Notes: a model not told the origin generated them from the letters alone. 43,165 bases of DNA from an uncultured Candidatus Saccharibacteria bacterium (GCA_964430135.1 CAYSEG010000008.1:1-43165); one strand, 5' to 3'; counted from the stretch's first letter, positions 1,324 to 40,018 are shown. Numbers and translations: made by a program.

Positions 1324-1389
1324 GGGAAGAAATAATTTTGATTTTTGTATTTTAATTTTTAATTTGAATAATGAAGGGAGGTGAGAAAA

Positions 1390-1752
1390 GTGTTCCAAAT
1401 TTTAAAAAACAAACGAAACAAAATAATACTATCCGCACTTGTATTAGTGATAATGGTTTTTCCTCTTTTAGCCTCGGCTGGTTGGAATATGCCGAATAGG
1501 CCAAATGGCTTACCAGATAAAGAATTAGACGAAGTCATTATGACTATCACTGATTGGGTCTTAGGATTTGCCGGAATAATTGCTATTTTAGTAATTGTCT
1601 ATGGCGGACTCTTATATCTTACTTCAGCCGGTAATGAAGACCAAATGGAAAAAGGCAAAAAAACTCTAATGTGGGGCATTTTAGGTTTGGTAATTATCGG
1701 CATTTCCTATGCGATTGTCAAGGTTATTGTTGAGGTTTGGCTGAAGGCATAA
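1390..1752 (+). CDS. T4SS pilin-like protein (TrbC/VirB2-like), paralog 2
   Basis: GTG start at 1390, preceded by AGGGAGGTGA. The 1381 GTG lies inside the SD. Core GGLLYLTSAGNEDQMEKGKKTL...GISYAIV. Confidence 0.65.
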   Translation: MFQILKNKRNKIILSALVLVIMVFPLLASAGWNMPNRPNGLPDKELDEVIMTITDWVLGFAGIIAILVIVYGGLLYLTSAGNEDQMEKGKKTLMWGILGLVIIGISYAIVKVIVEVWLKA

Positions 1753-1866
1753 TTTCCTTGTCTAATTTCGAAAAATTTGCTATAATTGCAATAGTTGTGG
1801 ATAACTTTCTTATTATTTTCTTATTACTTATAACTTATTATTTATTCAGAGAGGGGGTGAAGAAAA

Positions 1867-2226
1867 GTGAAGACATTAAAAAAGATTGGGAAAATAGCTG
1901 CTCCATTGGTTTTAGTAGGTATTTTTGCTTTAACAACCGGTGTGGCGCTTGCGGCAAATGCATGGGGTCCGCCAGATCAGCCAACAAACGTGCCGAATAA
2001 TCTTGCTAGTGCTATATTAAATGTTACTAACTGGATTTTAGGTTTTATCGGATTGATCGCTGTCTTAATTATTATCTGGGGTGGAGTTTTGTATTTAACT
2101 GCTGCTGGAAATGAAGACCAAACCGCAACCGCCAAGAAGACAATTAGCTGGGGTATTATGGGTTTGGTGATTGCCGGACTTGCTTATGCTATTGTCTATG
2201 TAATTTACACTGTCTGGCTTGGGTAG
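1867..2226 (+). CDS. T4SS pilin-like protein (TrbC/VirB2-like), paralog 3
   Basis: GTG start preceded by GAGGGGGTGA. Signal peptide with ALA-AN cleavage site. Core GGVLYLTAAGNEDQTATAKKTI...GLAYAIV. Confidence 0.65.
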   Translation: MKTLKKIGKIAAPLVLVGIFALTTGVALAANAWGPPDQPTNVPNNLASAILNVTNWILGFIGLIAVLIIIWGGVLYLTAAGNEDQTATAKKTISWGIMGLVIAGLAYAIVYVIYTVWLG

Positions 2227-2842: not shown

Positions 2843-4363
2843 TTATTTTAATTTTCTAAATATAATTGCGATATCATCCTGATAAATTTCATCCCAATCT
2901 GGGCTTAATCTTAATACTTGAGCCAGCGCCCTATCTTTTTTAATAAGCATCCATGAGACATTATATTTTTCAAGAAGATCTTGCCAATTACTCTGAAGCA
3001 TGTTTATTTCAGTGTAATCTTTAAGAATATGGAGATCCTTATTTTTCCAATGAGCCATTCTTCCATCAATGAAAGTTTTTACTTTAGGATATTCCCAGAT
3101 TAAATAACCGCCGAAGCCATAGTCATTAAACATATTTCCTTCTTGGGGATTTTCTTTGAGAAATTCCACTGCTTTTCTTGGATATTTTGCTTGCTCCGCT
3201 AAAATCGCGGGAGAATTAATTGCTTTTATTGTTTCTTTTAAAGAAAGGAGATGAGGAATATAGATGATAGAAAGAAGCACAAGTCCGATAAATATCACTT
3301 TTGTCTTTAAAACCTCTGAAAGTATTTTTTCCGGGACGCCTTGGATACTTTCTAATAGAAAAGGGATAGTAATAATAACGAAAAGCGGAACATGACGGGC
3401 GCTTTGAAGAGCCAGCCATAGAAAAGCCATCAAAAGAACAAATTGGGTAGGATCAATTCTTGATTTTTTTAAAGCAAGAATTTCAATGATGATCAAAAGA
3501 TAAATAGCAAAAAATATTCCCTCAGTACTATGAAAATTCAAAGAGAGCCACTCAATAATAATATTTGTTCCATAGGAATCAGTAAAGGTTCTTTTAAGCT
3601 CCCAAAGAAGTTTATAGCCGTAAGGATTAATGAATGCAACCAAGAAAGAAAGGGTAGTAAATATGCATAATTTTTTCCAAGCATTTTTTGTTAAGGTTTG
3701 AGATTTTTTTATCCATTCTGTTTCTCCTTTGTTTATCAGTCCTCTAATTTTTATTCTTTCAGTAGAAATGATGATTCCTAAGGTAATAAGGCCAATGACA
3801 AAAGAGGCATGCATATTTGCCCAGAGTAAAAATAATAAAGGAAGGGCGAAAACTGTTTTTGTTTTTTCGTTTTCTTTTAGTTTTTTCACAATAATTAAAA
3901 CCAAAACTAATCCCAAAAGAGTCAGAACTTGGGGGCGAATGCCAATAAAACTCCAGGAAACAAGAACACCAAGAATTCCGATTATTATTTTACTTTCCAA
4001 AGAATTTTTTTTCCGAGTCGTTTCGCCGATTAAAAAGCCAAAAACAGCTACGATAATTAAAGCAAAGGCAATACTTAATCCCCAATATCCAAAAATACTG
4101 TAGATACCGTAGATGAGAATTTCGGTCAGCCATTCATGATCAATCCAAGCAAAATCTGGCATTGTATAAGAATACCAGTCAAGATGAGGAATAGTTTTTG
4201 TTCGCCAAATTAATTCCCCTGTTTTTAGGTGCCAGCCCAAATCAGGATCGCCGGGCGATTTAAAGCCAAACAAAAAAATTATAATCAGGCCCAAAATAAC
4301 AAAACCGTATTTAGTTATATTGTGATTTTTAAATTCGGATTGAAGAAGTTTTTCAAAATTCAT
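2843..4363 (-). CDS. polytopic membrane protein, putative GT-C-type glycosyltransferase
   Basis: 506 aa with more than 10 predicted TM helices. First loop PGDPDLGWHLKTGELIW. It sits in the same tightly packed minus-strand block as the Arn-like enzymes. Confidence 0.4.
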   Translation of the reverse strand: MNFEKLLQSEFKNHNITKYGFVILGLIIIFLFGFKSPGDPDLGWHLKTGELIWRTKTIPHLDWYSYTMPDFAWIDHEWLTEILIYGIYSIFGYWGLSIAFALIIVAVFGFLIGETTRKKNSLESKIIIGILGVLVSWSFIGIRPQVLTLLGLVLVLIIVKKLKENEKTKTVFALPLLFLLWANMHASFVIGLITLGIIISTERIKIRGLINKGETEWIKKSQTLTKNAWKKLCIFTTLSFLVAFINPYGYKLLWELKRTFTDSYGTNIIIEWLSLNFHSTEGIFFAIYLLIIIEILALKKSRIDPTQFVLLMAFLWLALQSARHVPLFVIITIPFLLESIQGVPEKILSEVLKTKVIFIGLVLLSIIYIPHLLSLKETIKAINSPAILAEQAKYPRKAVEFLKENPQEGNMFNDYGFGGYLIWEYPKVKTFIDGRMAHWKNKDLHILKDYTEINMLQSNWQDLLEKYNVSWMLIKKDRALAQVLRLSPDWDEIYQDDIAIIFRKLK

Positions 4364-4371
4364 TTTATTAT

Positions 4372-6069
4372 TTATAACACCTTATAAATTACTGCTTTTT
4401 CGTTTTTATAAACCGGCTTTAAATATTCCATTTTTTCCGGATGAAAGTTTTCTAGATTGTAGTTAGAGAAAAATTTTGGAGAGTAATCAGGGAAAAGATC
4501 TGAAGAGTAGTCGGTGAAGAGCTCTGGAGAATATAGAAAATAAGCAATTTTGTATTTTTTTAAAAATTTATATTTTTGCTCTTTTTTTTCATCATCTTCA
4601 ATGAAATGTTTTAATTGGTTCATTTTTTTTGAAATATTTATAGTACGAGGAATATAGCCCGCAAAAACTATATTGCCGGACAACCCGGGGATAAGATTAC
4701 TGATTGAATATCCTGAAAGGACTATTTCTGAAGAATGAGTATTGTTTTTTAGCCAATCTACAGCTTCAAGATAAGATTTATCTAAATAAATAGGACAGGC
4801 AAGATAAATTTTTATATTTTGATCCTGATTTTTAGAAAAATAATCATATAGGGCAATATCAGTTAGCACGACATTAATATTGGAGAGAGATGTAAAAGAT
4901 ATTATGATAGAAAAAAAGATAACCTTTACTTTCTGAAAGGAAAAAGAAAATCCTTTTTGCGTCCATTTGTTTTTAAGATAATCTGAAAGAAGGAATAAAC
5001 CGAGAGTAGCTAAAATGACCATTGGGATATGCAAACCTTCGGTAAATTTTCTCTGAAATGGTAAAAATGACTGAGACGAAAGAAAGGAAGATGCAATTAT
5101 CCATGCTAATATAAAAAAAGAATTCCAATTTTTATTTTTAATAATTTTTAATATTCCTATTAGAGCTAAGAAAAAAATTAAGCCAAAGCCAGATATATAA
5201 CCCAGAAAGGATTTATTAAAAGTAATTCCTCCTTTTTCAAACCACCATTTAAGAGACGGACTATTGTTAATAGCATAATAATTATAAAGAATACCTGGCA
5301 AAAGAATTACTGCCATTATGAAGCAATATTTCAAAGTTATTTTTGGTTTCAAGTCCTTAATTAGAAATTTAAGAAATATAAAAAATCCAATAGTCAGCCA
5401 GACTATGAAAATATCATAAGTATGAATTAAGGAAAGGCTTAAAAGCGCTATACCTGATCCAACAGCATACTTTAACTTTGGATTTTTAAAAAATTCGAGA
5501 GTTAAGATGAATATAATGAGTATTAAAATTAGGGAGAGCAAATTAAGCGGTGATTCTAAAAGATTTAAGAAAGTAATTGTTTCTATCTGCCAAAGGTCAA
5601 TAGAGTAGTTTCCGGCTATCCAGCCGAATCCAGAGGAAAAAGTAAGAAGCAGAAAACATACCCCCCGCTTCAAAATGCCTTTTAAAAAATAAGAAATAAA
5701 TATATAGGCAATAAATAAGAATATAAAACCAAAAAATATTCTGAAAAGATGATAAGTAAAGATATTTGAAAAGTTGAAAATTCTGGCAAAATGCCCCATT
5801 GCCAGAAAAAGAGGATGAAAAAGAATTCTTCTTTGCGGTTCTACGCAGTATGGATCCTTGAATAAAAAGTGTCCTTCATTAGCTTGTTGAATCCAGGCGA
5901 TATAAGTGTAAGTATCACAAGTATTTATTTGGTGTTGCCCCATAAATTGAAAATTAGGCGGGGTAATATGGATAGCATAAAGATAAGGAAGTAATGTAAT
6001 ACTCATTATAATTATTGAAAAAACAAGGACAAAATACCATTCTTTTTTGGGAATAAAAGGAATAGACAT
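4372..6069 (-). CDS. polytopic membrane protein, putative GT-C-type glycosyltransferase
   Basis: 565 aa with many TM helices. The ATG overlaps the stop of the upstream gene by 1 nt (TAATG), which suggests translational coupling. Confidence 0.4.
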   Translation of the reverse strand: MSIPFIPKKEWYFVLVFSIIIMSITLLPYLYAIHITPPNFQFMGQHQINTCDTYTYIAWIQQANEGHFLFKDPYCVEPQRRILFHPLFLAMGHFARIFNFSNIFTYHLFRIFFGFIFLFIAYIFISYFLKGILKRGVCFLLLTFSSGFGWIAGNYSIDLWQIETITFLNLLESPLNLLSLILILIIFILTLEFFKNPKLKYAVGSGIALLSLSLIHTYDIFIVWLTIGFFIFLKFLIKDLKPKITLKYCFIMAVILLPGILYNYYAINNSPSLKWWFEKGGITFNKSFLGYISGFGLIFFLALIGILKIIKNKNWNSFFILAWIIASSFLSSQSFLPFQRKFTEGLHIPMVILATLGLFLLSDYLKNKWTQKGFSFSFQKVKVIFFSIIISFTSLSNINVVLTDIALYDYFSKNQDQNIKIYLACPIYLDKSYLEAVDWLKNNTHSSEIVLSGYSISNLIPGLSGNIVFAGYIPRTINISKKMNQLKHFIEDDEKKEQKYKFLKKYKIAYFLYSPELFTDYSSDLFPDYSPKFFSNYNLENFHPEKMEYLKPVYKNEKAVIYKVL

Positions 6070-6434
6070 TATGATTTAGAGACTAAAAATACTCCTAAGC
6101 AAATAATAATAACTCCGATTAAACGAAGAGGAGTAATATGCTCATTGAATAAAAATACAGAAGAAATTAAAACTAAAACAAATGAAAGACTCATAAAAGG
6201 ATAGATATAACTTATTTCTTTTTTAGATGCCGCAGCCATATAAGTAAAGCTTCCTAAGAAAGCTAAAACGAGACTTAAAATCACATATCTGTTAGATAAT
6301 GATTTTATAAAAAACGGGGTAATTTGTGAAAAATCCATCGGAAACTTTCCGACAATATTCATTCCATGCTTTAAAATTAACTGTCCGGCCGCTGTAAATA
6401 GAATTGTAATAAGTATCAGCAAATAGACTATCAT
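6069..6434 (-). CDS. ArnE/ArnF-like small EamA/SMR-type flippase subunit
   Basis: 121 aa with 4 TM helices. TAAGQLILKHGM and YIYPFMSLSFVLVLISSVFLFNEHITPLRLIGVIIICLGVFLVS match E. coli ArnE (AGQLCQKQA ... [43 protein letters not shown]) as I recall it. Confidence 0.6.
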   Translation of the reverse strand: MIVYLLILITILFTAAGQLILKHGMNIVGKFPMDFSQITPFFIKSLSNRYVILSLVLAFLGSFTYMAAASKKEISYIYPFMSLSFVLVLISSVFLFNEHITPLRLIGVIIICLGVFLVSKS

Positions 6435-6437
6435 TTT

Positions 6438-7565
6438 TTATTTTTTTATTATATCAATAACTGAACGAATAATATATCTAACTTCTTTGCGGGTTAATTT
6501 AGGATAAAGAGGAAGGGTAATGGTGCTCGCGCCTATTTTTTCAGCATTAGGATACATCCCTTTTTTATATCCATATTTTTTTCTATAATATTTCATTAAA
6601 TGAATTGGTCTAAAATTTACAGCTATCCCTATTTCTTTTTTTTGAAGTTGGTGTATTATTTTATCTCTTTTCTTTGGGTCCACTTGGATTGTGTAGATAT
6701 ATCTAGCTGGTTTTGTCTTTGGTAAAATTTCTGGAATTTGTATATTTTTAATATTTTTAAAAGCATTATTATAAATTTGACAAATTTTCTCTCTTTTTTT
6801 TAATCGTTCTTCTATCTTGTCTAATTGATTTAATAACATCGCTGCTTGAATGTTGGTCATATTATATTTCCAACCCAGAAATTCCATATCGTAATGTTGA
6901 TATTTTTTACTATATCGTTCAGCAGCGCTTTTACTCATGCCATGAAGTCTTGCTTTTTTTAGCCATTCAGCAATATTTTTGTCGTTAGTAACAACTGCTC
7001 CTCCTTCTCCCGAGGTAATATTTTTAATAGCATAAAAACTAAAGGAGGCTGTATTTCCTATTTGTCCGGCTCGATATCCATCTCTTTGGGCTTCTAAAGA
7101 ATGTGCTGCATCTTCTATTATAATAAGATTATATTTATTAGCAATCTTTTGGATTTTTTTCATATCGCAAAGCTGTCCGTAAAGATGAACAGGGATAATA
7201 GCTTTAGTTTTTTTAGTAATTGCTTTTTCAATTAAATCTGCATTTATATTTCCAGTGTTTTTTTCTACATCAACAAAGACTGGTTTGGCGCCAGTAAATT
7301 CAATTGCGTTAGCAGTAGAGATAAATGACATTGGGCTGGTAATAACTTCATTATCTTTGCCGATGCCGTAAGCTAAAAGAGAAAGATGAAGAGCGGCAGT
7401 GCAACTAGTAAGGCCAACAGCATATTTTACCCCTAAGTACTTAGCTAATTTATTCTCAAATTCTCCTACTGTTTCTCCAGTAGTCAAAAATAGAGAATTA
7501 AGAACTTTATTAACGTTTTCTATGTCTTTTTTTTCTAAATTGTGTTTAAAAAAATCTACTTTCAT
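6438..7565 (-). CDS. DegT/DnrJ/EryC1/StrS-family PLP aminotransferase (ArnB-like sugar 4-aminotransferase)
   Basis: SFYAIKNITSGEGG (PLP-binding Lys), AIIPVHLYGQ, IIEDAAHS. Overlaps the upstream gene by 4 nt. Confidence 0.9.
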   Translation of the reverse strand: MKVDFFKHNLEKKDIENVNKVLNSLFLTTGETVGEFENKLAKYLGVKYAVGLTSCTAALHLSLLAYGIGKDNEVITSPMSFISTANAIEFTGAKPVFVDVEKNTGNINADLIEKAITKKTKAIIPVHLYGQLCDMKKIQKIANKYNLIIIEDAAHSLEAQRDGYRAGQIGNTASFSFYAIKNITSGEGGAVVTNDKNIAEWLKKARLHGMSKSAAERYSKKYQHYDMEFLGWKYNMTNIQAAMLLNQLDKIEERLKKREKICQIYNNAFKNIKNIQIPEILPKTKPARYIYTIQVDPKKRDKIIHQLQKKEIGIAVNFRPIHLMKYYRKKYGYKKGMYPNAEKIGASTITLPLYPKLTRKEVRYIIRSVIDIIKK

Positions 7566-9208
7566 TTTTTATTTACTTTAAAGAAATAAAATTTTTGGTT
7601 ACATTTTTCATATTTAGTATAATCAAAAGTCGCTTCATCGGTAGCTAATAGAGAGTATTTATCAGGATTGCTAAGAAGATAGTTTTGTATATCAAGGTAC
7701 TCTAATATCTTATTCTTATATGGTATTTCACAATAAGAAAACTTTTTAAGATTAGTTTCCTCTAAAAATATCATATCACAATTTTTACTAAAAATAAAAA
7801 AGTCTATTTTGATAATTTTTTCTAATTTTTTTAATTCTTCTATATTTTTAGGCGGATGCCAGATGATCTTAATTGGGTAGTTTTGCCAAGCGTATAAAAA
7901 AGTATAAGGGGATACAATAACTTGTGGATTATACGCTTCTATATTTTTGTCTATCATTTGCGAAATAAGCGACTGTTCTTTATATTCCCTTTCTATTTTA
8001 TTTTTCATTTGGATAACGGAAATAATGTCTACAGATAAAAAAATAATAAATAGGCCGCTTATCAGAACCATCTTTTTTATTTCTTTATTGTTTAATTTAG
8101 ATAGATAATTTTCAAGAAATATTGAAAAATATATCAGAAGAAAAGGAATAAACCATAATAATATTCTTGTTTCTATTCTGTTCAATACACTGTAAAAAAG
8201 AAATAAAAGCAAAATATTTATTATAAATATAGGAAAAAATAGCCAGAAAAATCTTTTTTGTTTTTCATCACAATATTTATTATATGAAAGCAGAGTGAAA
8301 AAAGCTATTAACCAATAAGAAAACTTTAGAAGATCTTCGCTGTTTATTATTCTAAGGGTAGTCGCTTTATCAAAATTAAAAAGAAAATTTTCTTTGAGGC
8401 CCCATAATTTTTTATAGAAAGTATCCCATGAATTAATAATATTAAAATTATTGGGATAAATTTGTCTATCTGCTGAAAAGATTGGAAGGTAAAGAGTAAA
8501 AAATAAAGCTAAAAAAACTAAACTAAATATTATAATATTTCTCAGTCTATTTTCTTTGTTATAAATACAGAGTGAACCGATAACAGGCCATAATAAAAGT
8601 CCAAACGTTTCCCTAAAAAACATTCCAATAATTAAAATTACGGCCAAAATTATTGGTTTTGTATAATTATTTTTAAGTTTTATTAGAAGATAAAAGAATA
8701 AAAGACAGAGAAAAACAATGGAAATTTCAGTCATTACCATATTGGTATACAGCCAAAATACTGGAAATAAAATAAATAAAACAATTGATAGATTTCTGGC
8801 TTTTATATTTTTGTCAAGTAATTCTTTTGAGAGAAAATAAAATATAGCAATAGAGGTTAAATATAATAAAAAATTAGGCAGTAAAGCTATATAGTCATTG
8901 ACTCCGAATATTTTAAAGAAAACTGCCACAAGAGTAGAAAAACCAGGCATATGAAATGGTCTATCAAAGCCGCCATTTTTTATTATACTTTCGGTTATAT
9001 AAAGATTTGACGAAATTTCTCCTTTAAAAGCTATATTTCTGGCAGTTAGAGCGTATTCTATTTCATCAGAGTGTGAAATTTGTTGAAATAAAAATAAATT
9101 AGAGACAATTAAAACAATTGTCCCTAATAATAGACAGGTTTTAAGATTGATTGATTTATTTTTATATTTTTTGAAATAATTAAAAAAAGAAGTCGCTGAA
9201 CTATTCAT
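7562..9208 (-). CDS. GT39/GT83-family (ArnT/PMT-like) polyprenyl-phosphate-sugar-dependent glycosyltransferase
   Basis: 548 aa, polytopic. First periplasmic loop SDEIEYALTARNIAFKG: a DE..YA..A motif typical of ArnT/PMT enzymes. Confidence 0.65.
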   Translation of the reverse strand: MNSSATSFFNYFKKYKNKSINLKTCLLLGTIVLIVSNLFLFQQISHSDEIEYALTARNIAFKGEISSNLYITESIIKNGGFDRPFHMPGFSTLVAVFFKIFGVNDYIALLPNFLLYLTSIAIFYFLSKELLDKNIKARNLSIVLFILFPVFWLYTNMVMTEISIVFLCLLFFYLLIKLKNNYTKPIILAVILIIGMFFRETFGLLLWPVIGSLCIYNKENRLRNIIIFSLVFLALFFTLYLPIFSADRQIYPNNFNIINSWDTFYKKLWGLKENFLFNFDKATTLRIINSEDLLKFSYWLIAFFTLLSYNKYCDEKQKRFFWLFFPIFIINILLLFLFYSVLNRIETRILLWFIPFLLIYFSIFLENYLSKLNNKEIKKMVLISGLFIIFLSVDIISVIQMKNKIEREYKEQSLISQMIDKNIEAYNPQVIVSPYTFLYAWQNYPIKIIWHPPKNIEELKKLEKIIKIDFFIFSKNCDMIFLEETNLKKFSYCEIPYKNKILEYLDIQNYLLSNPDKYSLLATDEATFDYTKYEKCNQKFYFFKVNKK

Positions 9209-9224
9209 TATTTCATTTTATTTT

Positions 9225-10262
9225 TCAAAATATTCTATTTTTATATTTAACCTCTCGTAAAATTTTATCCGTTTCAATTAAATATTTGTAATAATCTACC
9301 GTTTTCGTTTTGATATCATCTGTTATTTTTCTTTTTTCTAATGCATCTTTTATTTCTTTAATTCCATCCTCAATATCCTTTTGTGGTCTAAAGCCTAATA
9401 CTTTTTGGATTTTAGAAAAATTAACATTATAACTTCTTTTATCTGGATCACTTGGAACATTCTCAATTATTGCGTTTGGAATATTTTTTTTAATTAAATT
9501 AGCCACTTCATAAACTTGATAATTTTGTTGGTTAGATCCAATATTAAATATTTCTCCATTAATCTTTTTTTTGTCAGCTTCCAGAATCAATATAAAAGCT
9601 CTAATTAAATCTTGGAGATGGATAAGCGGTCGCCATTGTTTTCCTCCCCCAGTGATAAATATTTTTTTATTTTTAAAGGCATGAAGAGTCATAATATTTA
9701 TAATTAAATCAAAACGCATTCTTTTGGATATTCCGTAAACAGTCGCATTTCTTTGACAGGTAAGACAGAAGTTACCATCAGCTAAACTTAGTAATTTTTT
9801 TTCTGTTTTAAGCTTTAATTTAGCATACAGCGAAACGGGAGATGTCTTAGATGATTCATCTAATTGTAAATTTTCACCTTGGCCATAGACACTACAAGAG
9901 GAGGAAAAGATATATCTTTCTACTCCCATTTCTTTAGCTATTTTTGCCGTCCTTGTTGATCCTTGAAAATTTATAGAATAAGTTATTTTAGGATTGAGAT
10001 CACAGGACGGATCATTTGAGATAGAAGCCAAATCAATAACCCCATAGACATTTTTTAGGATTTCTTTTGGAAAATATCTAATATCTTCTTTTATAATTTC
10101 TATGTTAGGATTGCCTAAGTATTCGTCAAGGGCCTCTATTCCAAAGAAAAATCGATCAAGAGCTTTTACTTTATAACCTTTTTTTAAAAGCTGGCCTACT
10201 AATTCTGAGCCAATGTATCCTCCAGCGCCGGTAACAAGAATTGTTTTTTTATTTATATTCAT
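9225..10262 (-). CDS. extended-SDR NAD-dependent epimerase/dehydratase (UDP-glucuronate decarboxylase / ArnA C-domain-like)
   Basis: TGAGGYIGSEL Rossmann motif, SSSCSVYG, YAKLK (YxxxK), TGGGKQWRPLIHLQD (cf. ArnA DGGKQKRCFTDIRD), GEIFNIGS. Confidence 0.7.
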   Translation of the reverse strand: MNINKKTILVTGAGGYIGSELVGQLLKKGYKVKALDRFFFGIEALDEYLGNPNIEIIKEDIRYFPKEILKNVYGVIDLASISNDPSCDLNPKITYSINFQGSTRTAKIAKEMGVERYIFSSSCSVYGQGENLQLDESSKTSPVSLYAKLKLKTEKKLLSLADGNFCLTCQRNATVYGISKRMRFDLIINIMTLHAFKNKKIFITGGGKQWRPLIHLQDLIRAFILILEADKKKINGEIFNIGSNQQNYQVYEVANLIKKNIPNAIIENVPSDPDKRSYNVNFSKIQKVLGFRPQKDIEDGIKEIKDALEKRKITDDIKTKTVDYYKYLIETDKILREVKYKNRIF

Positions 10263-10325
10263 ACTTTGTAAATAACGTATAAATTTTAACGAGAATTTTA
10301 ATCATTTTTTATTTTGATAAAAATT

Positions 10326-11054
10326 TCAATTAGGAGTGAACCATTTATGATAAACTAATTTGGCATCGTAGATTCTAAAACCAATTTTTTGGTAAAGTCT
10401 TTGGGCAGATATATTTTCTCCTTCTGTAGTAACTTCTATTTCATCTATATTTTTTGAGTTAAACCATTTTATACTTTCGTTTATTAATAATTTTCCATAT
10501 CCTTTTCCTTGATATTCTGGAAGTACTCCAATTAGATCAATTATTCCAATTTTATTTTTAATTTTACAGCTAATAAATCCGTAAATTTCATTCTTTATTT
10601 TTAAAACAATGATTTTATCAGCGTATCCTTTTAAAGAATTTTTTATCCATTCCCTATATATTTTTCTTGAGATATTTTTCTTTATTTTCTTGTCTTTATA
10701 AAAACGGCTTGTTTTCCCCACATAATTATTTATCTGAATTAGTTTTTTTATATCAGAAATTTTAGCATCTTCTAACTTTATATTTCTGGGAATGGAATTC
10801 AATTTATTATTTCTTTTTTTAAGATTTAAGTTATAGCCAACTTTAATATTTATTAAATCAAATTTATTCTCTTGAGCAATATTAATGGTATTGTAGTTGA
10901 TATTTACAAAACAAAAAAGACAAGAAAGATTTATTTTTTTACATTCGTCTAAAATTTTTCCAATATTTTTTTTATTCAAAGAATTAATATTTAATTTTCC
11001 AATATTCTTTTTAAATATTTTACTGTCCCATTCTAGATATTGAATATAGTTCAT
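10326..11054 (-). CDS. GNAT-family N-acetyltransferase (WecD-like aminosugar N-acetyltransferase candidate)
   Basis: C-terminal GNAT core IGVLPEYQGKGYGKLLI ... AQRLYQKIGF. Placed between the SDR and the GT2 gene. Confidence 0.7.
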   Translation of the reverse strand: MNYIQYLEWDSKIFKKNIGKLNINSLNKKNIGKILDECKKINLSCLFCFVNINYNTINIAQENKFDLINIKVGYNLNLKKRNNKLNSIPRNIKLEDAKISDIKKLIQINNYVGKTSRFYKDKKIKKNISRKIYREWIKNSLKGYADKIIVLKIKNEIYGFISCKIKNKIGIIDLIGVLPEYQGKGYGKLLINESIKWFNSKNIDEIEVTTEGENISAQRLYQKIGFRIYDAKLVYHKWFTPN

Positions 11055-11058
11055 AGAT

Positions 11059-11988
11059 TTATTTTATAAACTCATTAATAGAATAAAGCGGTCTTTTTTT
11101 TGTCTCAATATAATTTCTTCCTATATATTCTCCTAAAATACCAATCATTATTAGTTGAATTCCTCCTAAGAAAAATATTGAAACAATCAAAGAAGACCAT
11201 CCAGAGATAGCGGTGCTATAAATTATTTTTTTGAGTATAAAATAAGTTCCTAATATGAAAGAAATCAATGAGATAGATATTCCTATTAAAGTAGTCATCC
11301 TTAAAGGTAAAATAGAAAAGGAGAAAACAGCATCAAATGTTAATTTTAACATTTTGAATAGAGAGTATTTTGTCTTACCCCTGAATCTTTTATTATGATT
11401 TATTTCTATTCCTGTCTGTTTAAATCCTACATAACCAAATAATCCAATTATATATCGATTAGTTTCTCTGCATTTGTTTAATTCTAAAACTACTTTTCTT
11501 TTCATTATACGAAAAATAGTATTGTTAATTTCTATTTTTTCTTGAATGATTTTTTTTATTAAAAAAACAAAAATCTTTGAGGTTATCCTTTTAAACAATT
11601 TATCTTGTCTATTTTTTTTAATTCCATATACTATATCATATCCTTTGTTTAGTTTATTTAATAATTTAGGAATTTCTTCGGGTTGATCCTGCAAATCTCC
11701 ATCCATTAAGACTACCAATTTTCCAGTGCAATGATCTAATCCAGCAGTGATGGCAATGTGGTGTCCAAAATTACGAGAGAATTGAATGATTTTAACATTA
11801 TTGTCTATTTTATGTAATTCGTTTAATATTTCAAAAGATTTATCAGTGCTGCCGTCATCAACAAATATCATTTCATAAGTCTTCCTCAAATTCAGCAAAA
11901 CTTTAAATAGCCTTCTATAAAGTTCTTTTAAGTTTTCTTCTTCATTATAAATGGGAATTATAATTGAAATTTCAGTTGTTTTGTTCAT
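11059..11988 (-). CDS. GT2 polyprenyl-phosphate sugar transferase (ArnC/GtrB/DPM1-like)
   Basis: SIIIPIYNEEENL, VDDGSTDKS, DGDLQDQP, plus two C-terminal TM helices: the classic ArnC/GtrB architecture. Confidence 0.85.
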   Translation of the reverse strand: MNKTTEISIIIPIYNEEENLKELYRRLFKVLLNLRKTYEMIFVDDGSTDKSFEILNELHKIDNNVKIIQFSRNFGHHIAITAGLDHCTGKLVVLMDGDLQDQPEEIPKLLNKLNKGYDIVYGIKKNRQDKLFKRITSKIFVFLIKKIIQEKIEINNTIFRIMKRKVVLELNKCRETNRYIIGLFGYVGFKQTGIEINHNKRFRGKTKYSLFKMLKLTFDAVFSFSILPLRMTTLIGISISLISFILGTYFILKKIIYSTAISGWSSLIVSIFFLGGIQLIMIGILGEYIGRNYIETKKRPLYSINEFIK

Positions 11989-11999
11989 GAATATAAAAT

Positions 12000-13676
12000 T
12001 TAAAGATGTTTTATCTTCCAGATTTCAGTATCTTCATTTTGATAGGTCTTTTTAAATTTACTATCATTATTTAAGATATTTCTAAGGTTTTGATACTTTG
12101 ATTTACCACCGATAAAAATATACTCGGCTTTGAATTTTTCTTTGATAACTTGAGAAATAGGTTTATCTTTTTGGGGAACTTTGCATTCTGGCAAACTGCA
12201 GATAATTCCTTCTTCGCTGATATGCCGCCAGAGCCAGTATTTCTGAGGGTCGGCTACATACATAAAAGTCGGATCCATTCCTATTATATAATAATTATGA
12301 TGATTATAAAAGAATAATTGCGGAAAATTTCCCCAGTTGGCATTAAAGACAATTGATCCTTGAGGAGTATTTTTATTCAGCCATTCAGCAGCATCTTTGT
12401 ATTGATCATATTTTATTCCCTGATCAATCGCCCATGAAGCATAAGAAATGTTGGCTAATACTAAACCAAGCAGAGTTATCGCGGTGAAAAATTTAATAAT
12501 TTTTTTATTAGTTTGCTTCTTTAGTGTTATTGCGGGCGACTGAAGGGAACGTGGTAATGACAGCCGGGTTAACGAATCTACCCCAAAAGCTCCAAAAAGT
12601 ACAGTAAACGGCACCCAGTATTCAACAAAACGGTTGGCTTTGAGGGTTAGAACGAAAAAGAAAAGAGAAATGATAAAAAGCGAATAGAGAATTACTTTTT
12701 TGTCGTTTCGATCCGCTTGCTCTTTTGTCATTGCGAACGAGCCCGAATAGGGCGAGCGTGGCAATCCCGTATTTTCGCGGGATTGCTTTGTCGTTCCGCT
12801 TCTCGTAATGACAGAGGAGATAATGCCGATCGCAAAACATATCAAAACAAGCAAATTCGCGCGGGCAAAGTTGGCAAGGTCAGCGATTGGAAACCATTCC
12901 ATTCCTACGGGGATAGAGTGGAATATTCCTGCCTTGAAAATTTGTATATAAAGATAATAAAAATTTTTTGGAAAATAAGGATTAATGATTAATCCTCCTA
13001 ATAGTCCAATTCCGGAATAAATTAATAATTTTAGACCTGGCTTCCTGTTAATAAATAAATTTAAGCAGAAGAAAGAAAAAATGAAAAAGAGTAATATTAA
13101 AGAAGCTCCATATGTCCAGGAATACAAGAAAGATAAAACAAAAAGAAGAAAATATTTCTTTTTGATTATAAGATAGAAGCCTAAAAATAAGAATATTATT
13201 GAAATACTTTGGGTTTTAAGTAAATTTAGTCTAAAAATAAAAATTTGAGAGGCGCAGAATAATAAAATTGTCCAGAAAAAAGTAGATTTTATTTTATTTT
13301 GTTTTAATATCCAATAAAAAACTAAAAAGACGAGGCTGTTAAAAATAATTGTGGCTAATTTTGCTCCAAAGATTAAATCTCCATAAGTAAAAGGAACTAA
13401 AAGAATATGGAATAAAAAGTGAAAATCAGAAAAATTGTCTTTCCAGATAGTAAATTGCAGCCAGGGAAAATTATTAATAAACCCCTGTGTTCTTAAAAGA
13501 TAAGCGTTTTTTATGTGATAATAACCATCAGCCCCGGCCAAATTAGGAGTAGAAAATTGTATAAGAGAAAATATGATAAAAAAAAGTATGAAAACAGATA
13601 AATAAGGAATATATTTTTTGATTAGTAAAAAATTCATATTAAGTAAAAAATACTTTGATTTACTTAATTGTATCAT
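12000..13676 (-). CDS. polytopic membrane protein (putative glycosyltransferase) carrying an in-frame repeat-element insertion
   Basis: 558 aa with many TM helices. The loop RSGTTKQSRENTGLPRSPYSGSFAMTKEQADRNDKK is encoded by a GC-rich palindromic element (see repeat 12697-12814). Confidence 0.4.
   Translation of the reverse strand: MIQLSKSKYFLLNMNFLLIKKYIPYLSVFILFFIIFSLIQFSTPNLAGADGYYHIKNAYLLRTQGFINNFPWLQFTIWKDNFSDFHFLFHILLVPFTYGDLIFGAKLATIIFNSLVFLVFYWILKQNKIKSTFFWTILLFCASQIFIFRLNLLKTQSISIIFLFLGFYLIIKKKYFLLFVLSFLYSWTYGASLILLFFIFSFFCLNLFINRKPGLKLLIYSGIGLLGGLIINPYFPKNFYYLYIQIFKAGIFHSIPVGMEWFPIADLANFARANLLVLICFAIGIISSVITRSGTTKQSRENTGLPRSPYSGSFAMTKEQADRNDKKVILYSLFIISLFFFVLTLKANRFVEYWVPFTVLFGAFGVDSLTRLSLPRSLQSPAITLKKQTNKKIIKFFTAITLLGLVLANISYASWAIDQGIKYDQYKDAAEWLNKNTPQGSIVFNANWGNFPQLFFYNHHNYYIIGMDPTFMYVADPQKYWLWRHISEEGIICSLPECKVPQKDKPISQVIKEKFKAEYIFIGGKSKYQNLRNILNNDSKFKKTYQNEDTEIWKIKHL
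12697..12814. repeat. family-A palindromic element (copy A1) inserted in frame inside a CDS
   Basis: TGTCATTGCGAACGAG ... CTCGTAATGACA terminal inverted repeats. Internal hairpins GCCCgaataGGGC and GCAATCCCGtattttcgCGGGATTGC. GC content is far above the flanking sequence. The insertion keeps the reading frame and falls between two TM helices. Confidence 0.65.
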
Positions 13677-13761: not shown

Positions 13762-14640
13762 TTAATTTGTGTATACTCTGACATTATCAAAGTGTACTTT
13801 TGGCCTGCCCCACACGGATTTTAGTCCGACTGTGGAGTAACTTCTTCCATTTAAGGGATTGGGATCATAGAAGTGTGCGACTCTTTTGCCGTCAACGAAG
13901 AGAGAAATATCTCCGCCTATTCTTTGCGCTTTGATGTGATAGATTTTTCCCGGTCTTACTAATTCGTTTTTGTTCTCATCCATAAAGTAGTTATTTCTGA
14001 GAATTGATGTCTTGGTGTTACTGTTTCCTCCGAAAGCGAATGTGTAGCCGATGTCAGGGTTATAATCTGTTCCTATAGTACATTCTATGCCTGCGCTAGG
14101 ATTATTTTTGTCGGTATAAGCGTCAAATTCCAGGATTACATCTCCTGGGAATTTTTTTTCTAAAATAACCCACATTCCTGCGCATTGGTTTTTCTCACCG
14201 CTTAGTTCTCCGTTTTTCATTGCCCAGTTTCCGGATTTAACTATCCAATTGCGATTTTCTTCTTGATTAAATTTATCTTCAAAGACGAGAACGAAGTTTC
14301 TGGAGTTTTTAGAAATAACTTTTTCAGCCGGCCCGTCATAATTACTGACAACAGAGGCAATTACTACTATTACAACAATTACTGTTATCACTCCAATAAC
14401 TGTCCCCCAAGGGGTTTTCTTTAGTGCTTGTGTTGTTGGTGCTCCTATAATTTCTGGTTTTTCTCGACTTATTATGAAATCTGCGACTACTATGATTATT
14501 CCCAGAAAAAAAGATATTCCTGCTATTGTTCCGATTGGCAAATTAGTAAAAATTACTAAGATGCCAGTAATGAACATTGGAATGACCAACAGCTCTATTC
14601 CTATCTTTCTCGTATCTATCTTTTCTATGTCCATATCCAT
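13762..14640 (-). CDS. membrane-anchored protein with a C-terminal concanavalin/LamG-like jelly-roll domain (DUF1080-like?)
   Basis: An N-terminal domain of 3 TM helices followed by a beta-rich domain (WAMKNGELSGEK ... ILEFDAYTDKNNPSAGIE). Family assignment is tentative. Confidence 0.3.
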   Translation of the reverse strand: MDMDIEKIDTRKIGIELLVIPMFITGILVIFTNLPIGTIAGISFFLGIIIVVADFIISREKPEIIGAPTTQALKKTPWGTVIGVITVIVVIVVIASVVSNYDGPAEKVISKNSRNFVLVFEDKFNQEENRNWIVKSGNWAMKNGELSGEKNQCAGMWVILEKKFPGDVILEFDAYTDKNNPSAGIECTIGTDYNPDIGYTFAFGGNSNTKTSILRNNYFMDENKNELVRPGKIYHIKAQRIGGDISLFVDGKRVAHFYDPNPLNGRSYSTVGLKSVWGRPKVHFDNVRVYTN

Positions 14641-14642: not shown

Positions 14643-15758
14643 TTACTCATCTCCTTTTTTCTTTAGCATACCTGAAATTCCGGCAGCGATTGCTCCAATG
14701 TCAGCAATTCCTTTTTCAAGTCCTGCACCAGTAGCAATAAGTGTTCCTTTTCCTGCTGCTTCAAGTAGATCTTTTTGTCTAATGTAAGTCATTACTTGTA
14801 ATGGCGTTAAAGTTTCCCCGGTCTCTTCTTTTACTAATCTGATAATTTCTGTAATTTCCCTTGATTTTTCCAGTCCTTCGCCTATTCCTCTTTTTTCTGC
14901 TGCTTTTAGATTAAATGCTTCTTCCTCAACTTTCTTTCCTGCTAAATGAATCGCTCTTCTTTGTTTCTCTGTATCTTCGTGTAGTCTGATATCTGTTATC
15001 AGGACTGCTTTAAAATCAATTCCATATTCTTTAAGTGCCTCATCGGCTTGTTTTTCTATTCTTTTAGAGATACTTAGTTCTATGTATTCTTTTTTTGCTT
15101 TTTTTCTTTCTTCTTCGGTTAATTCTATTCTTGATTTTATTGCTTCGTCTAATTTAATGCGTCCACAGAATCCTCGAGTTAGTGAGTCCACCATTTCTTG
15201 CACTAAATATTTCCAGCCGCCTTCAGTAGTTACTTTGTATGTCGCTGCTACTACATCAAATACTTCCACTGTTGATCTTATTGTTACTATTGCTGAATCA
15301 TCTTCAAAGTCCAGCTTGCTTCTTTTTTTCTTTTCGCCATTCTCCTGTATATGTTCGATTTCATCCATGTAAAGATCGATAATTATCGTACTTTTGTAAG
15401 GGATTTTACTTTTTACTGTCATTATTCCCGGGATTATAACATAAGGCAGAAATCGCGGCTTCCATACGTCAAAATATTGACCGAAGAGTTCTATTATCCA
15501 ATGATATGGTTTATGGACGACTCTAAGCAAAAGCAATAATCCGGCAATACTAATAATACTTATTCCTTGTAGTGTTCGGTTTCCGAATATCGATCCGACG
15601 ATTAAAAGTATTAATGTAGTAGCAATAGTTCCTCTGATTGCATACCGGATGATTTCTTCAATTCGTTTTCTTTGTTCTTCTCTCTTTTCTTCTTCTTCTT
15701 CTTCTTCTTCTGTTTCTTCTATTTCCAATTCCTCTTCTTCTCTTCTTTCTTCGCTCAT
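14643..15758 (-). CDS. SPFH/band-7 (stomatin/prohibitin-like) membrane protein with an acidic poly-Glu N-terminal tail
   Basis: One TM helix, then IKLDEAIKSRIELTEEERKK ... ALKEYGIDFKAVLITDIRL ... AEKRG, which follows the stomatin core pattern. AGGAGGTGA SD. The N-terminus is EEEEEEEE encoded by (GAA)n. Confidence 0.65.
   Translation of the reverse strand: MSEERREEEELEIEETEEEEEEEEKREEQRKRIEEIIRYAIRGTIATTLILLIVGSIFGNRTLQGISIISIAGLLLLLRVVHKPYHWIIELFGQYFDVWKPRFLPYVIIPGIMTVKSKIPYKSTIIIDLYMDEIEHIQENGEKKKRSKLDFEDDSAIVTIRSTVEVFDVVAATYKVTTEGGWKYLVQEMVDSLTRGFCGRIKLDEAIKSRIELTEEERKKAKKEYIELSISKRIEKQADEALKEYGIDFKAVLITDIRLHEDTEKQRRAIHLAGKKVEEEAFNLKAAEKRGIGEGLEKSREITEIIRLVKEETGETLTPLQVMTYIRQKDLLEAAGKGTLIATGAGLEKGIADIGAIAAGISGMLKKKGDE
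15691..15712. repeat. (CTT)7/(GAA)7 trinucleotide microsatellite inside the SPFH gene
   Basis: cttcttcttcttcttcttcttc on the plus strand. It encodes the in-frame poly-Glu run and could vary in length by slipped-strand mispairing. Confidence 0.7.
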
Positions 15759-40008: not shown

Positions 40009-40018
40009 AAAAAATAAG

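Follow-up and report, generated by a model that had tools for sequence, protein, structure and literature searches.

A predicted extracytoplasmic glycosylation operon next to a VirB2-like pilin array in a CPR bacterium

Results

The window analyzed here (the whole stretch of 43,165 nucleotides) contains an operon that probably encodes a multi-component extracytoplasmic glycosylation system of a monoderm CPR bacterium, with an Arn-like amino-sugar module set within a CPR-typical GT-C cassette (Table 1). Most likely, the operon serves to produce an N-acetylated amino sugar that is coupled to a lipid carrier in the membrane, flipped outward, and attached to surface molecules by four membrane glycosyltransferases. 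A sequence-only reading had proposed an undescribed module, but this type of machinery is already known from other bacteria: well-described monoderm systems made of a GT2, a flippase, and a GT-C attach sugars to teichoic acids, to wall polysaccharides, and to proteins (PMC8035078, PMC11127046, PMC12041528). The underlying logic of that reading, a lipid-linked sugar passing through a flippase to a GT-C acting outside the membrane, is supported.

Table 1 Features of the operon and of the adjacent pilin array.
Feature	Position	Strand	Evidence
Three VirB2/TrbC-like pilin genes	516-875, 1381-1752, 1867-2226 (array 516..2226)	+	PF18895, 1e-12 to 2e-14
23S-rRNA-IVP-family gene fragment interrupting the pilin array	964-1212		
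GTC_A, 506 aa, GT-C fold	2843..4363	-	Unnamed family; invariant D39-P-D41, W44, H45, R143, H185, R323
GTC_B, 565 aa, GT-C fold	4372..6069	-	Large unnamed family; D52, R135, D158, H216 conserved
EamA/SMR-like protein, 121 aa, 4 TM	6069..6434	-	PF00892, 29.5 bits (gathering score 28.2); TM scan
DegT/DnrJ/EryC1 PLP-dependent sugar aminotransferase	6438..7565	-	SFYAIK PLP-lysine motif; PF01041, 1e-125
PMT_2-family GT-C (ArnT/PMT clan), ~10-12 TM and C-terminal domain	7562..9208	-	PF13231, 2.4e-9
Extended SDR, Cj1427-like/epimerase-like	9225..10262	-	GAGGYIGS, SSSCSVYG, YAKLK; PF01370, 8e-36
GNAT N-acetyltransferase, WecD-like two-domain architecture	10326..11054	-	QGKGYG acetyl-CoA motif; PF00583, 3.4e-17
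Polyprenyl-phosphate glycosyltransferase, GT2, GtrB/ArnC/PgfS family	11059..11988	-	PF00535, 1.5e-35; DGD motif
GTC_D, 558 aa, polytopic, GT-C-type	12000..13676	-	Unnamed family; D50 after TM1, C-terminal W-D-D-F motif conserved
ConA-like/3-keto-disaccharide-hydrolase-domain protein, 292 aa, membrane-anchored, 3 TM	13762..14640	-	PF06439, 5.6e-7; TM scan
SPFH/Band-7 membrane protein, 371 aa, 2 TM	14643..15758	-	PF01145, 3e-6
Sigma-70-type promoter-like site	15975..16002	-	TTGACA-16-TATAAT, 12/12 consensus, TG extension; consensus match only

The nine co-directional and partly overlapping ORFs from GTC_D to GTC_A were borne out, all on the minus strand with gaps of -4 to 63 bp and two overlaps. 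The transcription unit probably starts at the promoter-like site, ahead of two further co-directional genes, and no convincing terminator was found between this site and position 2843. The SPFH/Band-7 gene, the probable first gene of the operon, lies 2 bp from the next gene, and in a Saccharibacteria locus (L008) its homolog is found upstream of a GTC_D homolog. The PF06439 protein is a possible glycan-binding partner. The GNAT, SDR, PMT_2, aminotransferase, and flippase genes form a tightly packed block sharing an unusually low GC content. The window also encodes peptidoglycan machinery (MreBCD, PBP2, a Mur ligase, and FemAB), while no teichoic-acid or wall-polysaccharide backbone genes, no 4,6-dehydratase, and no lpx genes were found in its 43 kb.

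The families and nearest homologs indicate that the window comes from a CPR/Patescibacteria organism. It encodes families typical of CPR (three PF18895 T4SS_pilin matches and a PF18898 DUF5654), and the named nearest homologs come from Patescibacteria, Kuenenbacteria, Portnoybacteria, Dojkabacteria, and Staskawiczbacteria. Because CPR bacteria have been described as monoderm (10.1101/2021.05.31.446380), lipid A is unlikely as the acceptor, in line with the lipid-A-free host suggested previously.

The SDR had been taken as ArnA-C/UXS-like, an assignment that did not hold. The C-terminal UDP-GlcA C4-oxidase/decarboxylase of ArnA has a Ser-Glu catalytic pair and Arg619. At the position of the (T/S)-S-E-V-Y-G motif of ArnA and UXS, the SDR carries S-C-S-V-Y-G, leaving a catalytic motif (SSSCSVYG...YAKLK) without Glu or Asp-Glu; UXS was matched at 2.5e-21, and the ArnA model aligned to the N-terminal Rossmann part only (52 bits versus a cut-off of 777). 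The best PDB match was 6vo6 (9.7e-43), which we take to be Cj1427, the C4-dehydrogenase of Campylobacter jejuni; the similarity is moderate (150 bits over ~308 aligned residues; next match, 83 bits), and the PDB neighbors include UDP-GlcA and UDP-Glc 4-epimerases. Cj1427, which belongs to the C. jejuni heptose pathways and acts on GDP-heptose, recycles its tightly bound NADH with alpha-ketoglutarate and releases, with neither dehydration nor decarboxylation, a free NDP-4-keto sugar usable by aminotransferases or dehydratases (PMC10680097). The SDR of the operon may oxidize an NDP-sugar at C4. Since it lacks the ArnA-C/UXS catalytic motif, the full 4-keto/4-amino route is putative, and since its motif would fit a plain 4-epimerase equally, it is no more than a candidate source of the keto sugar. 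Hence, of the "full route" to a 4-aminosugar claimed earlier, the enzyme families stand (aminotransferase, GNAT, GT2, and flippase), whereas the 4-keto/4-amino chemistry is a prediction.

The aminotransferase belongs to the DegT family, as proposed. It matched the PseC (4.6e-109) and ArnB (5.8e-90) models, both under cut-off, and an ArnB-like protein (4lc3, 1e-65), QdtB (1e-64), and perosamine synthase (3e-63) in the PDB, scores that separate neither 4- from 3-amination nor the sugar type. The GNAT matched WecD (PRK10975) over its full length (2.9e-27, residues 3-231 of 242, under cut-off) and the TDP-fucosamine acetyltransferase 2fs5 at 1.5e-4. WecD-type GNATs acetylate the 4-amino group of the NDP-sugar in the Fuc4NAc route. 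None of the 11 operon proteins contains a formyltransferase or polysaccharide-deacetylase (ArnD) domain, so that a GNAT does occupy the place of the formyltransferase. With the amine acetylated and no deacylase encoded, the product would be a neutral acetamido sugar, unlike Ara4N, which is a cationic modifier of charge.

For lipid loading, the GT2 assignment was confirmed, with GtrB (5ekp, 6e-85 across residues 2-306) ahead of the ArnC (3e-60) for which it had been named. PgfS was its best NCBIfam match (1.2e-72), followed by ArnC (2.5e-69), both under cut-off, and a TM scan placed two C-terminal TM helices at 234-285. The EamA/SMR-like protein matched ArnF (9.8e-12) and ArnE (1.4e-6), again under cut-off; the family of the suggested ArnE-like mini-flippase is thereby retained, and the protein is a candidate ArnE/ArnF-like flippase for the lipid-linked sugar.

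The operon encodes four GT-C proteins, and each of them shows a conserved acidic residue in the extracytoplasmic loop that follows TM1. The ArnT-like enzyme is a PMT_2 protein (38 bits versus a gathering score of 26.1 for PF13231; LA_3751/2 family, 8.4e-9) that has a D-E pair at this place and whose gene shares 4 bp with the aminotransferase gene. The three further polytopic proteins lack any Pfam match, yet their GT-C character was upheld: GTC_A and GTC_B have a GT-C fold in high-confidence models, and GTC_D is assigned to the GT-C type by profile homology, its alignment with the GTC_A family (hhalign) reaching 99.5% and an E-value of 8.8e-23 over 460 columns. Most of the top structural neighbors of these two proteins, GTC_A and GTC_B, are GT-Cs that modify proteins (STT3, AglB, PglB, DPY19, and PMT). 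GTC_A, encoded by the last gene of the operon, which is convergent with the pilin array, carries a C-terminal N-x-Y-x-W-G-G-Y, and GTC_D gave a weak archaeo_STT3 match (2.3e-5); the GTC_B family consensus lacks motifs of the N-x-Y-x-W-G-G-Y or W-D-D-F type. No window protein matched YfhO (PF09586) even at E <= 10. One distant homolog of GTC_B (P0302) includes a fused YfhO-like segment.

Comparison with other genomes connects these families to GT2 enzymes. The 832 GTC_D homologs occur in Patescibacteria and Chloroflexi, some of them fused to a GT2, and Rosetta-stone fusions join GT2 domains to both GTC_D- and GTC_B-family proteins. Cassettes of GTC_D, a short GT2, and GTC_B are present in other CPR genomes, and two loci (L087/L088) contain GT2, GTC_B, and GTC_A together. 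An independent analogous operon (L090) encodes a GDP-mannose dehydratase, a DegT protein, a GT2 fusion, a GtrA flippase, a DUF2079 protein, and a GTC_A homolog, and ends with a WxL-interacting/LysM wall protein.

The pilin genes, described earlier as upstream, instead lie past the operon's 3' end, convergent and on the opposite strand. A type IV pilin identity was rejected, as the genes are of the VirB2/TrbC type (PF18895). The array is 617 bp from the GTC_A gene, and gaps between pilin and GT-C genes in eight other loci are 30-210 bp. Pilin arrays adjoin GTC_A, GTC_D, GTC_B, or DUF2079 genes, in differing arrangements, in 15 other loci, which are phylogenetically non-independent and some of which are presumed CPR members; for comparison, only 441 arrays were reported across 3026 Patescibacteria assemblies (PMC12102498). 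This recurrent adjacency gives comparative support to the proposal that pilins are candidate acceptors. At the N-termini of the mature pilins, no conserved Ser/Thr/Asn site was conspicuous. Genes of the GTC_D and GTC_A families also abound in Chloroflexi and in other phyla without pilin arrays, and these families therefore cannot in general be specific to pilins.

Discussion

In the proposed mechanism, the SDR would take C4 of a nucleotide sugar to the keto state in the cytoplasm, the DegT aminotransferase would convert the 4-keto into a 4-amino sugar (with a predicted regiochemistry), and the WecD-like GNAT would N-acetylate it. The GtrB/ArnC-type GT2 would then transfer the sugar to polyprenyl phosphate, and the ArnE/F-like 4-TM protein is predicted to flip it. 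At the outer face, the PMT_2 enzyme, GTC_D, GTC_B, and GTC_A would transfer the flipped sugar, or other polyprenyl-P-sugars, to surface acceptors. Among the observations that count against this scheme are that one GT2 stands beside four GT-C enzymes and that an in-frame repeat insertion in GTC_D (around 12690-12825) could impair the protein.

The closest general parallels are the three-component systems GtrB/GtrA/GtrC of Shigella and Salmonella and CsbB/GtcA/YfhO and GacI-L of Firmicutes (PMC11127046, PMC8035078). In these systems, of which monoderm examples exist, a polyprenyl-phosphate GT2 whose C-terminus bears TM helices works with a small flippase of 4 TM and with a GT-C that acts outside the membrane and has its catalytic Asp after TM1; the locus has a GT2 with DGD and C-terminal TM helices, a 4-TM flippase-like protein, and the GT-C acidic residue. 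Unlike them, it contains four GT-C genes, three from families without a Pfam model, an ArnE/F/EamA-like rather than GtrA-like flippase, and an embedded dedicated amino-sugar module, in a CPR host. The enterobacterial common antigen Fuc4NAc route (RffG/RmlB, WecE, WecD) also places a two-domain WecD-type GNAT after a DegT aminotransferase, but its 4,6-dehydratase has no counterpart in the window, and its Fuc4NAc is added to a lipid-PP intermediate by a cytoplasmic GT, without a polyprenyl-P carrier and GT-C.

A conventional Arn operon (PmrHFIJKLM) adding 4-amino-4-deoxy-L-arabinose to lipid A would contain the same six enzyme classes: an SDR, a DegT aminotransferase, N-acylation ahead of lipid loading, an ArnC-like GT2, an ArnE/F-like flippase, and an ArnT-clan GT-C. 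In the Arn pathway, the N-terminal domain of ArnA formylates the amine and ArnD then deformylates it. We consider this reading extremely unlikely, since, although the named models with the best scores include ArnB, ArnC, ArnF, and ArnE, no equivalog threshold was reached (301.7, 233.7, 45.4, and 28.5 bits versus cut-offs of 631, 529, 99, and 92, respectively, along with the ArnA score given above), the decarboxylase Ser-Glu pair is missing from the SDR, a GNAT replaces the absent formyltransferase, the amine stays blocked without ArnD, the GT2 is nearer GtrB than ArnC, and the CPR host belongs to a clade described as monoderm (10.1101/2021.05.31.446380). It is also rather unlikely that the sugar and lipid-carrier genes are loosely coupled, with the SDR as an ordinary UDP-hexose/HexNAc 4-epimerase (PgfE-like) feeding the GT2 a common sugar, while the aminotransferase and GNAT use a 4-keto-6-deoxy sugar from a dehydratase encoded elsewhere (e.g., RmlB) for a Fuc4NAc/Qui4NAc-type NDP-sugar. 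The epimerase-like SSSCSVYG motif, the epimerases among the PDB neighbors, and the WecD-like GNAT (the substrate of WecD is a 4-amino-4,6-dideoxy sugar) would agree with it, as would the PgfS match of the GT2, since the Streptococcus mutans Pgf operon contains an epimerase (PMC12041528). However, the SDR reached 150 bits with 6vo6 and 83 or less with any epimerase, its gene is within the tightly packed low-GC block, and the dehydratase is absent from the window. The Pgf operon (PgfS, PgfE, PgfM1, PgfM2) and GtrB/PgtC2 are nonetheless precedents in which a monoderm O-glycosylates its surface and membrane proteins outside the cytoplasm, with a GT2, an SDR "epimerase," more than one GT-C per operon, and adjoining adhesin genes (PMC12041528); they differ in that PgfM1, PgfM2, and PgtC2 are YfhO-family proteins and that Pgf, whose sugar is GalNAc, lacks aminotransferase, GNAT, and flippase genes.

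It seems improbable that GTC_A, GTC_B, and GTC_D represent divergent oligosaccharyltransferases of the STT3/AglB/PglB type, which would transfer a glycan assembled beforehand from polyprenyl diphosphate onto Asn or Ser/Thr residues in surface proteins. Their C-terminal domains do match those of AglB-S2, Pyrococcus furiosus STT3, and PglB (AglB/STT3/PglB for GTC_B), and the TM domains share a similar fold as well, with the conserved aromatic/Gly motif (N-x-Y-x-W-G-G-Y or W-D-D-F) near the start of this domain and the weak archaeo_STT3 match of GTC_D; yet the WWDYG and DK/MI motifs are absent from all three family consensus sequences, the partner by adjacency and fusion is a polyprenyl-monophosphate-type GT2, no initiating phosphoglycosyl transferase or Wzx/PglK flippase domain occurs in the 11 operon or other window proteins, and the operon has no stepwise cytoplasmic GTs. 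Possible, though in our view less than likely, is that the same lipid-linked machinery serves a cell-wall glycopolymer or lipoglycan (a teichoic-acid-like polymer, wall polysaccharide, or peptidoglycan-linked glycan) instead of pilins or other proteins, resembling CsbB/GtcA/YfhO, GacI-L, or the mycobacterial addition of GalN to arabinogalactan. In monoderms, most characterized three-component systems act on wall polymers (PMC8035078, PMC11127046), and the Chloroflexi loci without pilin arrays, the wall protein closing the L090 operon, and the peptidoglycan machinery of the window argue in the same direction; against this, the window has no such backbone genes, GTC_A and GTC_B resemble mostly protein-modifying GT-Cs, and pilin arrays show strong adjacency to these GT-C genes in CPR.

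Within the preferred reading of a surface glycosylation system, surface proteins would be the likeliest acceptors, among which the conserved neighborhood singles out the VirB2-like pilins next to the operon as the foremost specific candidate. The Pseudomonas aeruginosa TfpW pilin arabinosylation offers a parallel by gene context, as its GT-C gene immediately adjoins the pilin gene pilA, the donor is a polyprenyl-P-monosaccharide, and ArnE/F-type flippases are implicated, but TfpW modifies the type IV pilin PilA with D-Araf and has a TPR C-terminal domain, while the neighbors here are VirB2/TrbC-like (10.1101/2020.04.19.049825). More speculatively, CPR VirB2-like arrays in general might carry polyprenyl-phosphate-linked sugars, here a rare 4-acetamido-4-deoxy sugar made via a Cj1427-type oxidase, transferred by previously unrecognized GT-C families (GTC_A/GTC_D, GTC_B, and DUF2079) that travel with the arrays. 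If this doubtful idea were true, it would mark the first case of glycosylation of a conjugative-type (VirB2/TrbC) pilin and add three new GT-C families, with oligosaccharyltransferases as their nearest structural relatives. One VirB2-like pilin array was reported to be essential for the epibiotic growth of Ca. Southlakia epibionticum (PMC12102498).

Gene organization

Nine ORFs lie head to tail on the minus strand (table), with spacings of −4 to 63 bp and two overlaps. From GTC_D downwards they encode GTC_D, a GT2, a GNAT, an SDR, a PMT_2 protein, an aminotransferase, a 4-TM protein, GTC_B and GTC_A, where GTC_A, GTC_B and GTC_D are our names for three polytopic GT-C-type proteins of unnamed families. 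The window is of metagenomic origin, and the nine genes recur without exception on near-identical contigs in JGI 3300021471, two ENA assemblies and two Logan runs. Two further co-directional genes are found directly upstream. Beyond them, a TTGACA-16-TATAAT sequence with a TG extension is the sole perfect sigma-70 consensus within the scanned 14 kb, a consensus match that is no proof of promoter function, and no convincing terminator was found downstream of it in that scan. Together with the two additional genes, these features point to a transcription unit that is probably 11 genes long.

Just upstream of the operon, the window differs at the strain level from a sister contig (L001, positions 1-4500). 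A XerC/D-like integrase beside tRNA-Leu and DUF5654, also upstream, is present in the window and in two retrieved loci (L002 and L003) and raised the idea of a mobile-element origin. L001 has a GT4 glycosyltransferase, SmpB and IF3 at the integrase position, with DUF5654 and the operon unchanged, and this origin was set aside.

Coordinates of the features discussed, in the window unless another locus is named
Feature	Locus	Coordinates	Strand or orientation
GTC_A	window	2843-4363	minus
GTC_B	window	4372-6069	minus
4-TM protein	window	6069-6434	minus
DegT aminotransferase	window	6438-7565	minus
PMT_2 protein	window	7562-9208	minus
SDR	window	9225-10262	minus
GNAT	window	10326-11054	minus
GT2	window	11059-11988	minus
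GTC_D	window	12000-13676	minus
Insertion in GTC_D	window	12690-12825	minus
Partial second copy of the insertion	window	~12530-12572	
3-TM protein, ConA-like/3-keto-disaccharide-hydrolase domain	window	13762-14640	co-directional with operon
SPFH/Band-7 protein	window	14643-15758	co-directional with operon
Promoter-like site	window	16002-15975	operon strand
Strain-variable stretch	window	16232-17866	
Pilin array	window	516-2226	plus
Truncated PF05635 gene	window	964-1212	
Spacer	window	2227-2842	
tRNA-Ile (TAT)	window	25354-25430	
Mur-ligase-family gene	window	38293-40008	
Second DegT-family gene	window	40443-41801	
FemAB-family gene	window	41950-42996	
DUF2079 gene	L057	16073-18106	co-directional with adjoining array
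DUF2079 gene	L068	12223-14184	co-directional with adjoining array
DUF2079 gene	L072	15039-17054	co-directional with adjoining array
DUF2079 gene	L076	10221-12095	co-directional with adjoining array
DUF2079 gene	L084	13305-15011	co-directional with adjoining array
DUF2079 gene	L090	8394-9869	adjoins GTC_A homologue
Parallel gene string	L090	1426-13326	

Amino-sugar and lipid-carrier enzymes

The aminotransferase belongs unambiguously to the DegT/DnrJ/EryC1 enzymes (E = 1e-125), and its PLP-lysine motif reads SFYAIK. PseC and ArnB are its top named models, both below the equivalog cut-offs. Against solved structures it scored about equally with ArnB-like enzymes, the 3-aminotransferase QdtB and perosamine synthases, and the scores therefore fix neither the sugar nor the regiochemistry. 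The GNAT matched the model of WecD, the dTDP-4-amino-4,6-dideoxygalactose acyltransferase, over its entire two-domain length (2.9e-27, below the cut-off) and the WecD structure 2fs5 weakly, which fits an enzyme that N-acetylates an amino sugar nucleotide. Domain and model searches found neither a formyltransferase nor an ArnD-like deacylase among the operon proteins. The GT2 carries a DGD motif and two TM helices at its C-terminus, the 121-aa 4-TM protein passed the EamA gathering score and is ArnF/ArnE-like, and the PMT_2 protein passed the PMT_2 gathering score and has a D-E pair after TM1.

The sequence-only reading had described an Arn-like lipid-linked amino-sugar pathway, and as an observation it was largely right: the ArnB-like DegT aminotransferase, the GNAT in place of the formyltransferase, the ArnE-like mini-flippase and the ArnT-like transferase were all recovered. 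Its ArnC-like GT2 was recovered as well, matching ArnC at 3e-60 and, more strongly, the polyisoprenyl-phosphate glucosyltransferase GtrB (5ekp, 6e-85); in NCBIfam PgfS and ArnC score about the same, both below their cut-offs.

The ArnA-C/UXS-like assignment of the SDR was not borne out. This extended SDR, with the motifs GAGGYIGS and YAKLK, reads S-C-S-V-Y-G at the catalytic position where UXS and ArnA have (T/S)-S-E-V-Y-G and 4,6-dehydratases T-D-E-V-Y-G. UXS matched it at 2.5e-21 and ArnA over the Rossmann part only, whereas its closest solved relative was 6vo6 (9.7e-43, 150 bits; runner-up 83 bits), which, going by the molecule name of the entry, is probably Cj1427. Cj1427 oxidises C4 of GDP-heptose, releases the 4-keto sugar and reoxidises its bound NADH with alpha-ketoglutarate (PMC10680097). 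A Cj1427-like oxidase would feed a keto sugar to the aminotransferase and, attractively, would use up the alpha-ketoglutarate that the aminotransferase makes; the SDR may alternatively be an ordinary 4-epimerase. As for a conventional Arn operon, the enzyme classes are alike, but the decarboxylase residues, the formyltransferase and ArnD are absent and all equivalog scores fall below the cut-offs, and this reading was rejected on the motif and cut-off tests.

GT-C membrane proteins and their cassettes

For each of the four polytopic proteins, ~8-12 TM segments are predicted, with a soluble domain of ~110-150 residues after the last of them. An Asp just after TM1 is invariant or near-invariant in each of the three families that lack a Pfam model: D39-P-D41 in GTC_A, D52 in GTC_B and D50 in GTC_D. 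These families have 692, 832 (GTC_D) and 3473 matches. Searches of the PDB with single sequences and profiles gave no useful match for any of the four proteins, and Pfam at E ≤ 10 matched none of GTC_A, GTC_B and GTC_D, so that structure prediction was needed. The oligosaccharyltransferase WWDYG motif was found in none of them; despite the resemblance in fold they are therefore not classed as oligosaccharyltransferases, and the N-OST reading was rejected on motif tests. The three large families can now carry the annotation GT-C glycosyltransferase. GTC_D and GTC_A are remote paralogues (hhalign 99.5%, E = 8.8e-23, 460 columns), while the GTC_D profile gave no significant hhalign match to the single PMT_2 and GTC_B sequences. 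Recent paralogy of all four proteins is thereby ruled out, and only GTC_A and GTC_D are demonstrably related.

GTC_D also contains an insertion that keeps the reading frame, is GC-rich and resembles a palindromic repeat (GTCATTACGAGAAGCGGAACGACAAAGCAATCCCGCG...GGGATTGCCACGCTCGCC...CGCAATGAC, translating to TRSGTTKQSRENTGLPRSPYSGSFAMTKEQADRNDKK). The full copy occurs only once in the window, beside a partial second copy; relatives with 97% identity retain the insertion, which the family profile lacks. It has the look of a MITE-type element that a coding gene tolerates in one of its loops.

Fusions to an N-terminal GT2 domain occur in the GTC_D family (P0143, P0145, P0149, P0150) and the GTC_B family (P0376, P0382). 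GTC_D, a short GT2 and GTC_B follow one another in several CPR genomes (L015, L016, L056 and L068, loci retrieved with the GTC_D profile), and GTC_A homologues come after GT2 and GTC_B in L087/L088 and after GT2 in L086. In the window, the six Arn-like genes occupy 11988 to 6069, with GTC_D on one side and GTC_B/GTC_A on the other; elsewhere in CPR the GT-C genes that flank this block are directly adjacent. The block is poor in GC, at 0.22-0.31 (GNAT 0.224, PMT_2 0.246, GT2 0.256), compared with 0.33 across the window and 0.37-0.41 in housekeeping genes. Low GC and position together suggest that an amino-sugar module was inserted into a CPR-typical GT-C cassette, and are consistent with its horizontal acquisition. 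An independent parallel, with the same logic and different parts, is one string in L090, from a peat or soil metagenome: a GDP-mannose 4,6-dehydratase, DegT, a GT2-ATP-grasp fusion, PHP, two methyltransferases, a GtrA flippase, DUF2079, a GTC_A homologue and a WxL-interacting/LysM wall protein. Separately, the 1352-aa protein P0302 is a fusion of a YfhO-like segment and a GTC_B domain.

Association with pilin arrays

Three VirB2-like pilin genes form an array that faces GTC_A in convergent orientation across a gap of 617 bp. Similar arrays lie at 30-117 bp in four GTC_A-centred loci (L086, L134, L145, L160) and within ~3 kb in L094, 80-210 bp downstream in four GTC_D-centred Saccharibacteria loci (L006-L009), and 1.6-2.7 kb away in six more (L057, L068, L072, L074, L076, L084). 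In the L006-L009 type, which the tractable Saccharibacteria TM7x and Southlakia share, GTC_D and the array converge directly. In all of the last six loci except L074, the gap is filled by a gene on the pilin strand for a DUF2079 (PF09852) polytopic protein. A 'DLAIFNQ...GDHF' motif following TM1 is conserved in the DUF2079 proteins, which probably represent a further GT-C-type family tied to pilin arrays.

Counting loci with GC < 45% and at least 8 kb, an array was present in 10 of 22 GTC_D-centred and 4 of 7 GTC_A-centred loci, to which L134 (GC 0.45) was added, giving 15 phylogenetically non-independent cases; none was found in the high-GC loci above the cut-off, Chloroflexi included. A survey of 3026 Patescibacteria assemblies reported 441 such arrays in 383 assemblies (PMC12102498), so that a random 20-kb window would contain one in well under 5% of cases, detection thresholds differing between that survey and our counts. 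Glycosyltransferases beside arrays go unmentioned in the survey, and glycosylation in Saccharibacteria is described as 'unexplored' in a study of their pili (PMC11623550).

The sequence-only reading favored the pilins as acceptors. A precedent is the GT-C TfpW, whose gene adjoins that of its pilin substrate, whose donor is a polyprenyl-P-sugar and for which flippases of the ArnE/F type are implicated (10.1101/2020.04.19.049825). One point against pilins as the acceptor in general is that members of the GTC_D and GTC_A families are common where arrays are lacking. Moreover, in an alignment of 27 pilins from GT-C-adjacent arrays, no conserved modifiable Ser/Thr/Asn stands out in the mature N-termini, and only the hydrophobic helices and a T-(A/S)-G-G-(N/D) loop are conserved. 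A more novel reading, in which VirB2-type pilins are glycosylated with a rare sugar, is considered unlikely. The recurrent juxtaposition makes the GT-C families a concrete candidate for array accessory machinery and suggests a route by which pilus antigenic or phage-receptor variation might arise.

Inspection of the spacer by eye showed a hairpin and, after it, a T-run (AAAAAACAGACAC...GTGTCTGTTTTTT), together a likely bidirectional terminator. Short 'TTTTCAAT'-type repeats, several of them in tandem, and a 'GTCATTCT...AGAATGAC' palindrome are also present. The array itself contains a truncated gene for a 23S-rRNA-intervening-sequence-family protein (PF05635), arranged identically in sister contigs; a PF05635 gene also occurs near the array of L086.

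Relation to known systems and host cell surface

The locus is in kind a three-component or multi-component transmembrane glycosylation system (PMC11127046, PMC8035078), and Pgf and GtrB/PgtC2 illustrate that such systems glycosylate proteins too in monoderms (PMC12041528). The earlier interpretation was partly right: the module is not 'undescribed' in kind. New are the occurrence together, in a CPR genome, of an Arn-like amino-sugar module and four GT-C enzymes, the assignment of three large families without annotation to GT-C, and the recurrent linkage of the GTC_A, GTC_B and GTC_D families to VirB2-like pilin arrays. Next to nothing is known of how CPR/Patescibacteria assemble and modify the surface through which they attach, obligately, to host cells; here a CPR bacterium spends ~11 kb of a small genome on glycosylation by way of a lipid carrier and four GT-C enzymes.

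That the host lacks lipid A is background knowledge of the clade and not a result of the window analysis. Signs of CPR/Patescibacteria in the window are three PF18895 'T4SS_pilin' genes, one PF18898 (DUF5654) gene and a GC content of ~33%; the named homologues of the new membrane proteins all come from Patescibacteria lineages, plus Chloroflexi for one family. CPR, Chloroflexi and Dormibacteraeota are described as a monoderm clade in a preprint on outer-membrane tethering (10.1101/2021.05.31.446380). MreBCD, PBP2, a Mur ligase and a FemAB protein are all encoded in the window, and the organism therefore makes peptidoglycan.

A second DegT-family aminotransferase (452 aa), whose split Pfam match suggests an insertion, has an unusual neighborhood (38293-42996), flanked by the Mur-ligase-family and FemAB-family genes; it might be linked to modification of the peptidoglycan stem peptide or bridge. 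Finally, ARAGORN identified a tRNA-Ile with anticodon TAT, which is uncommon in bacteria, as these usually decode AUA via a lysidine-modified CAT tRNA.
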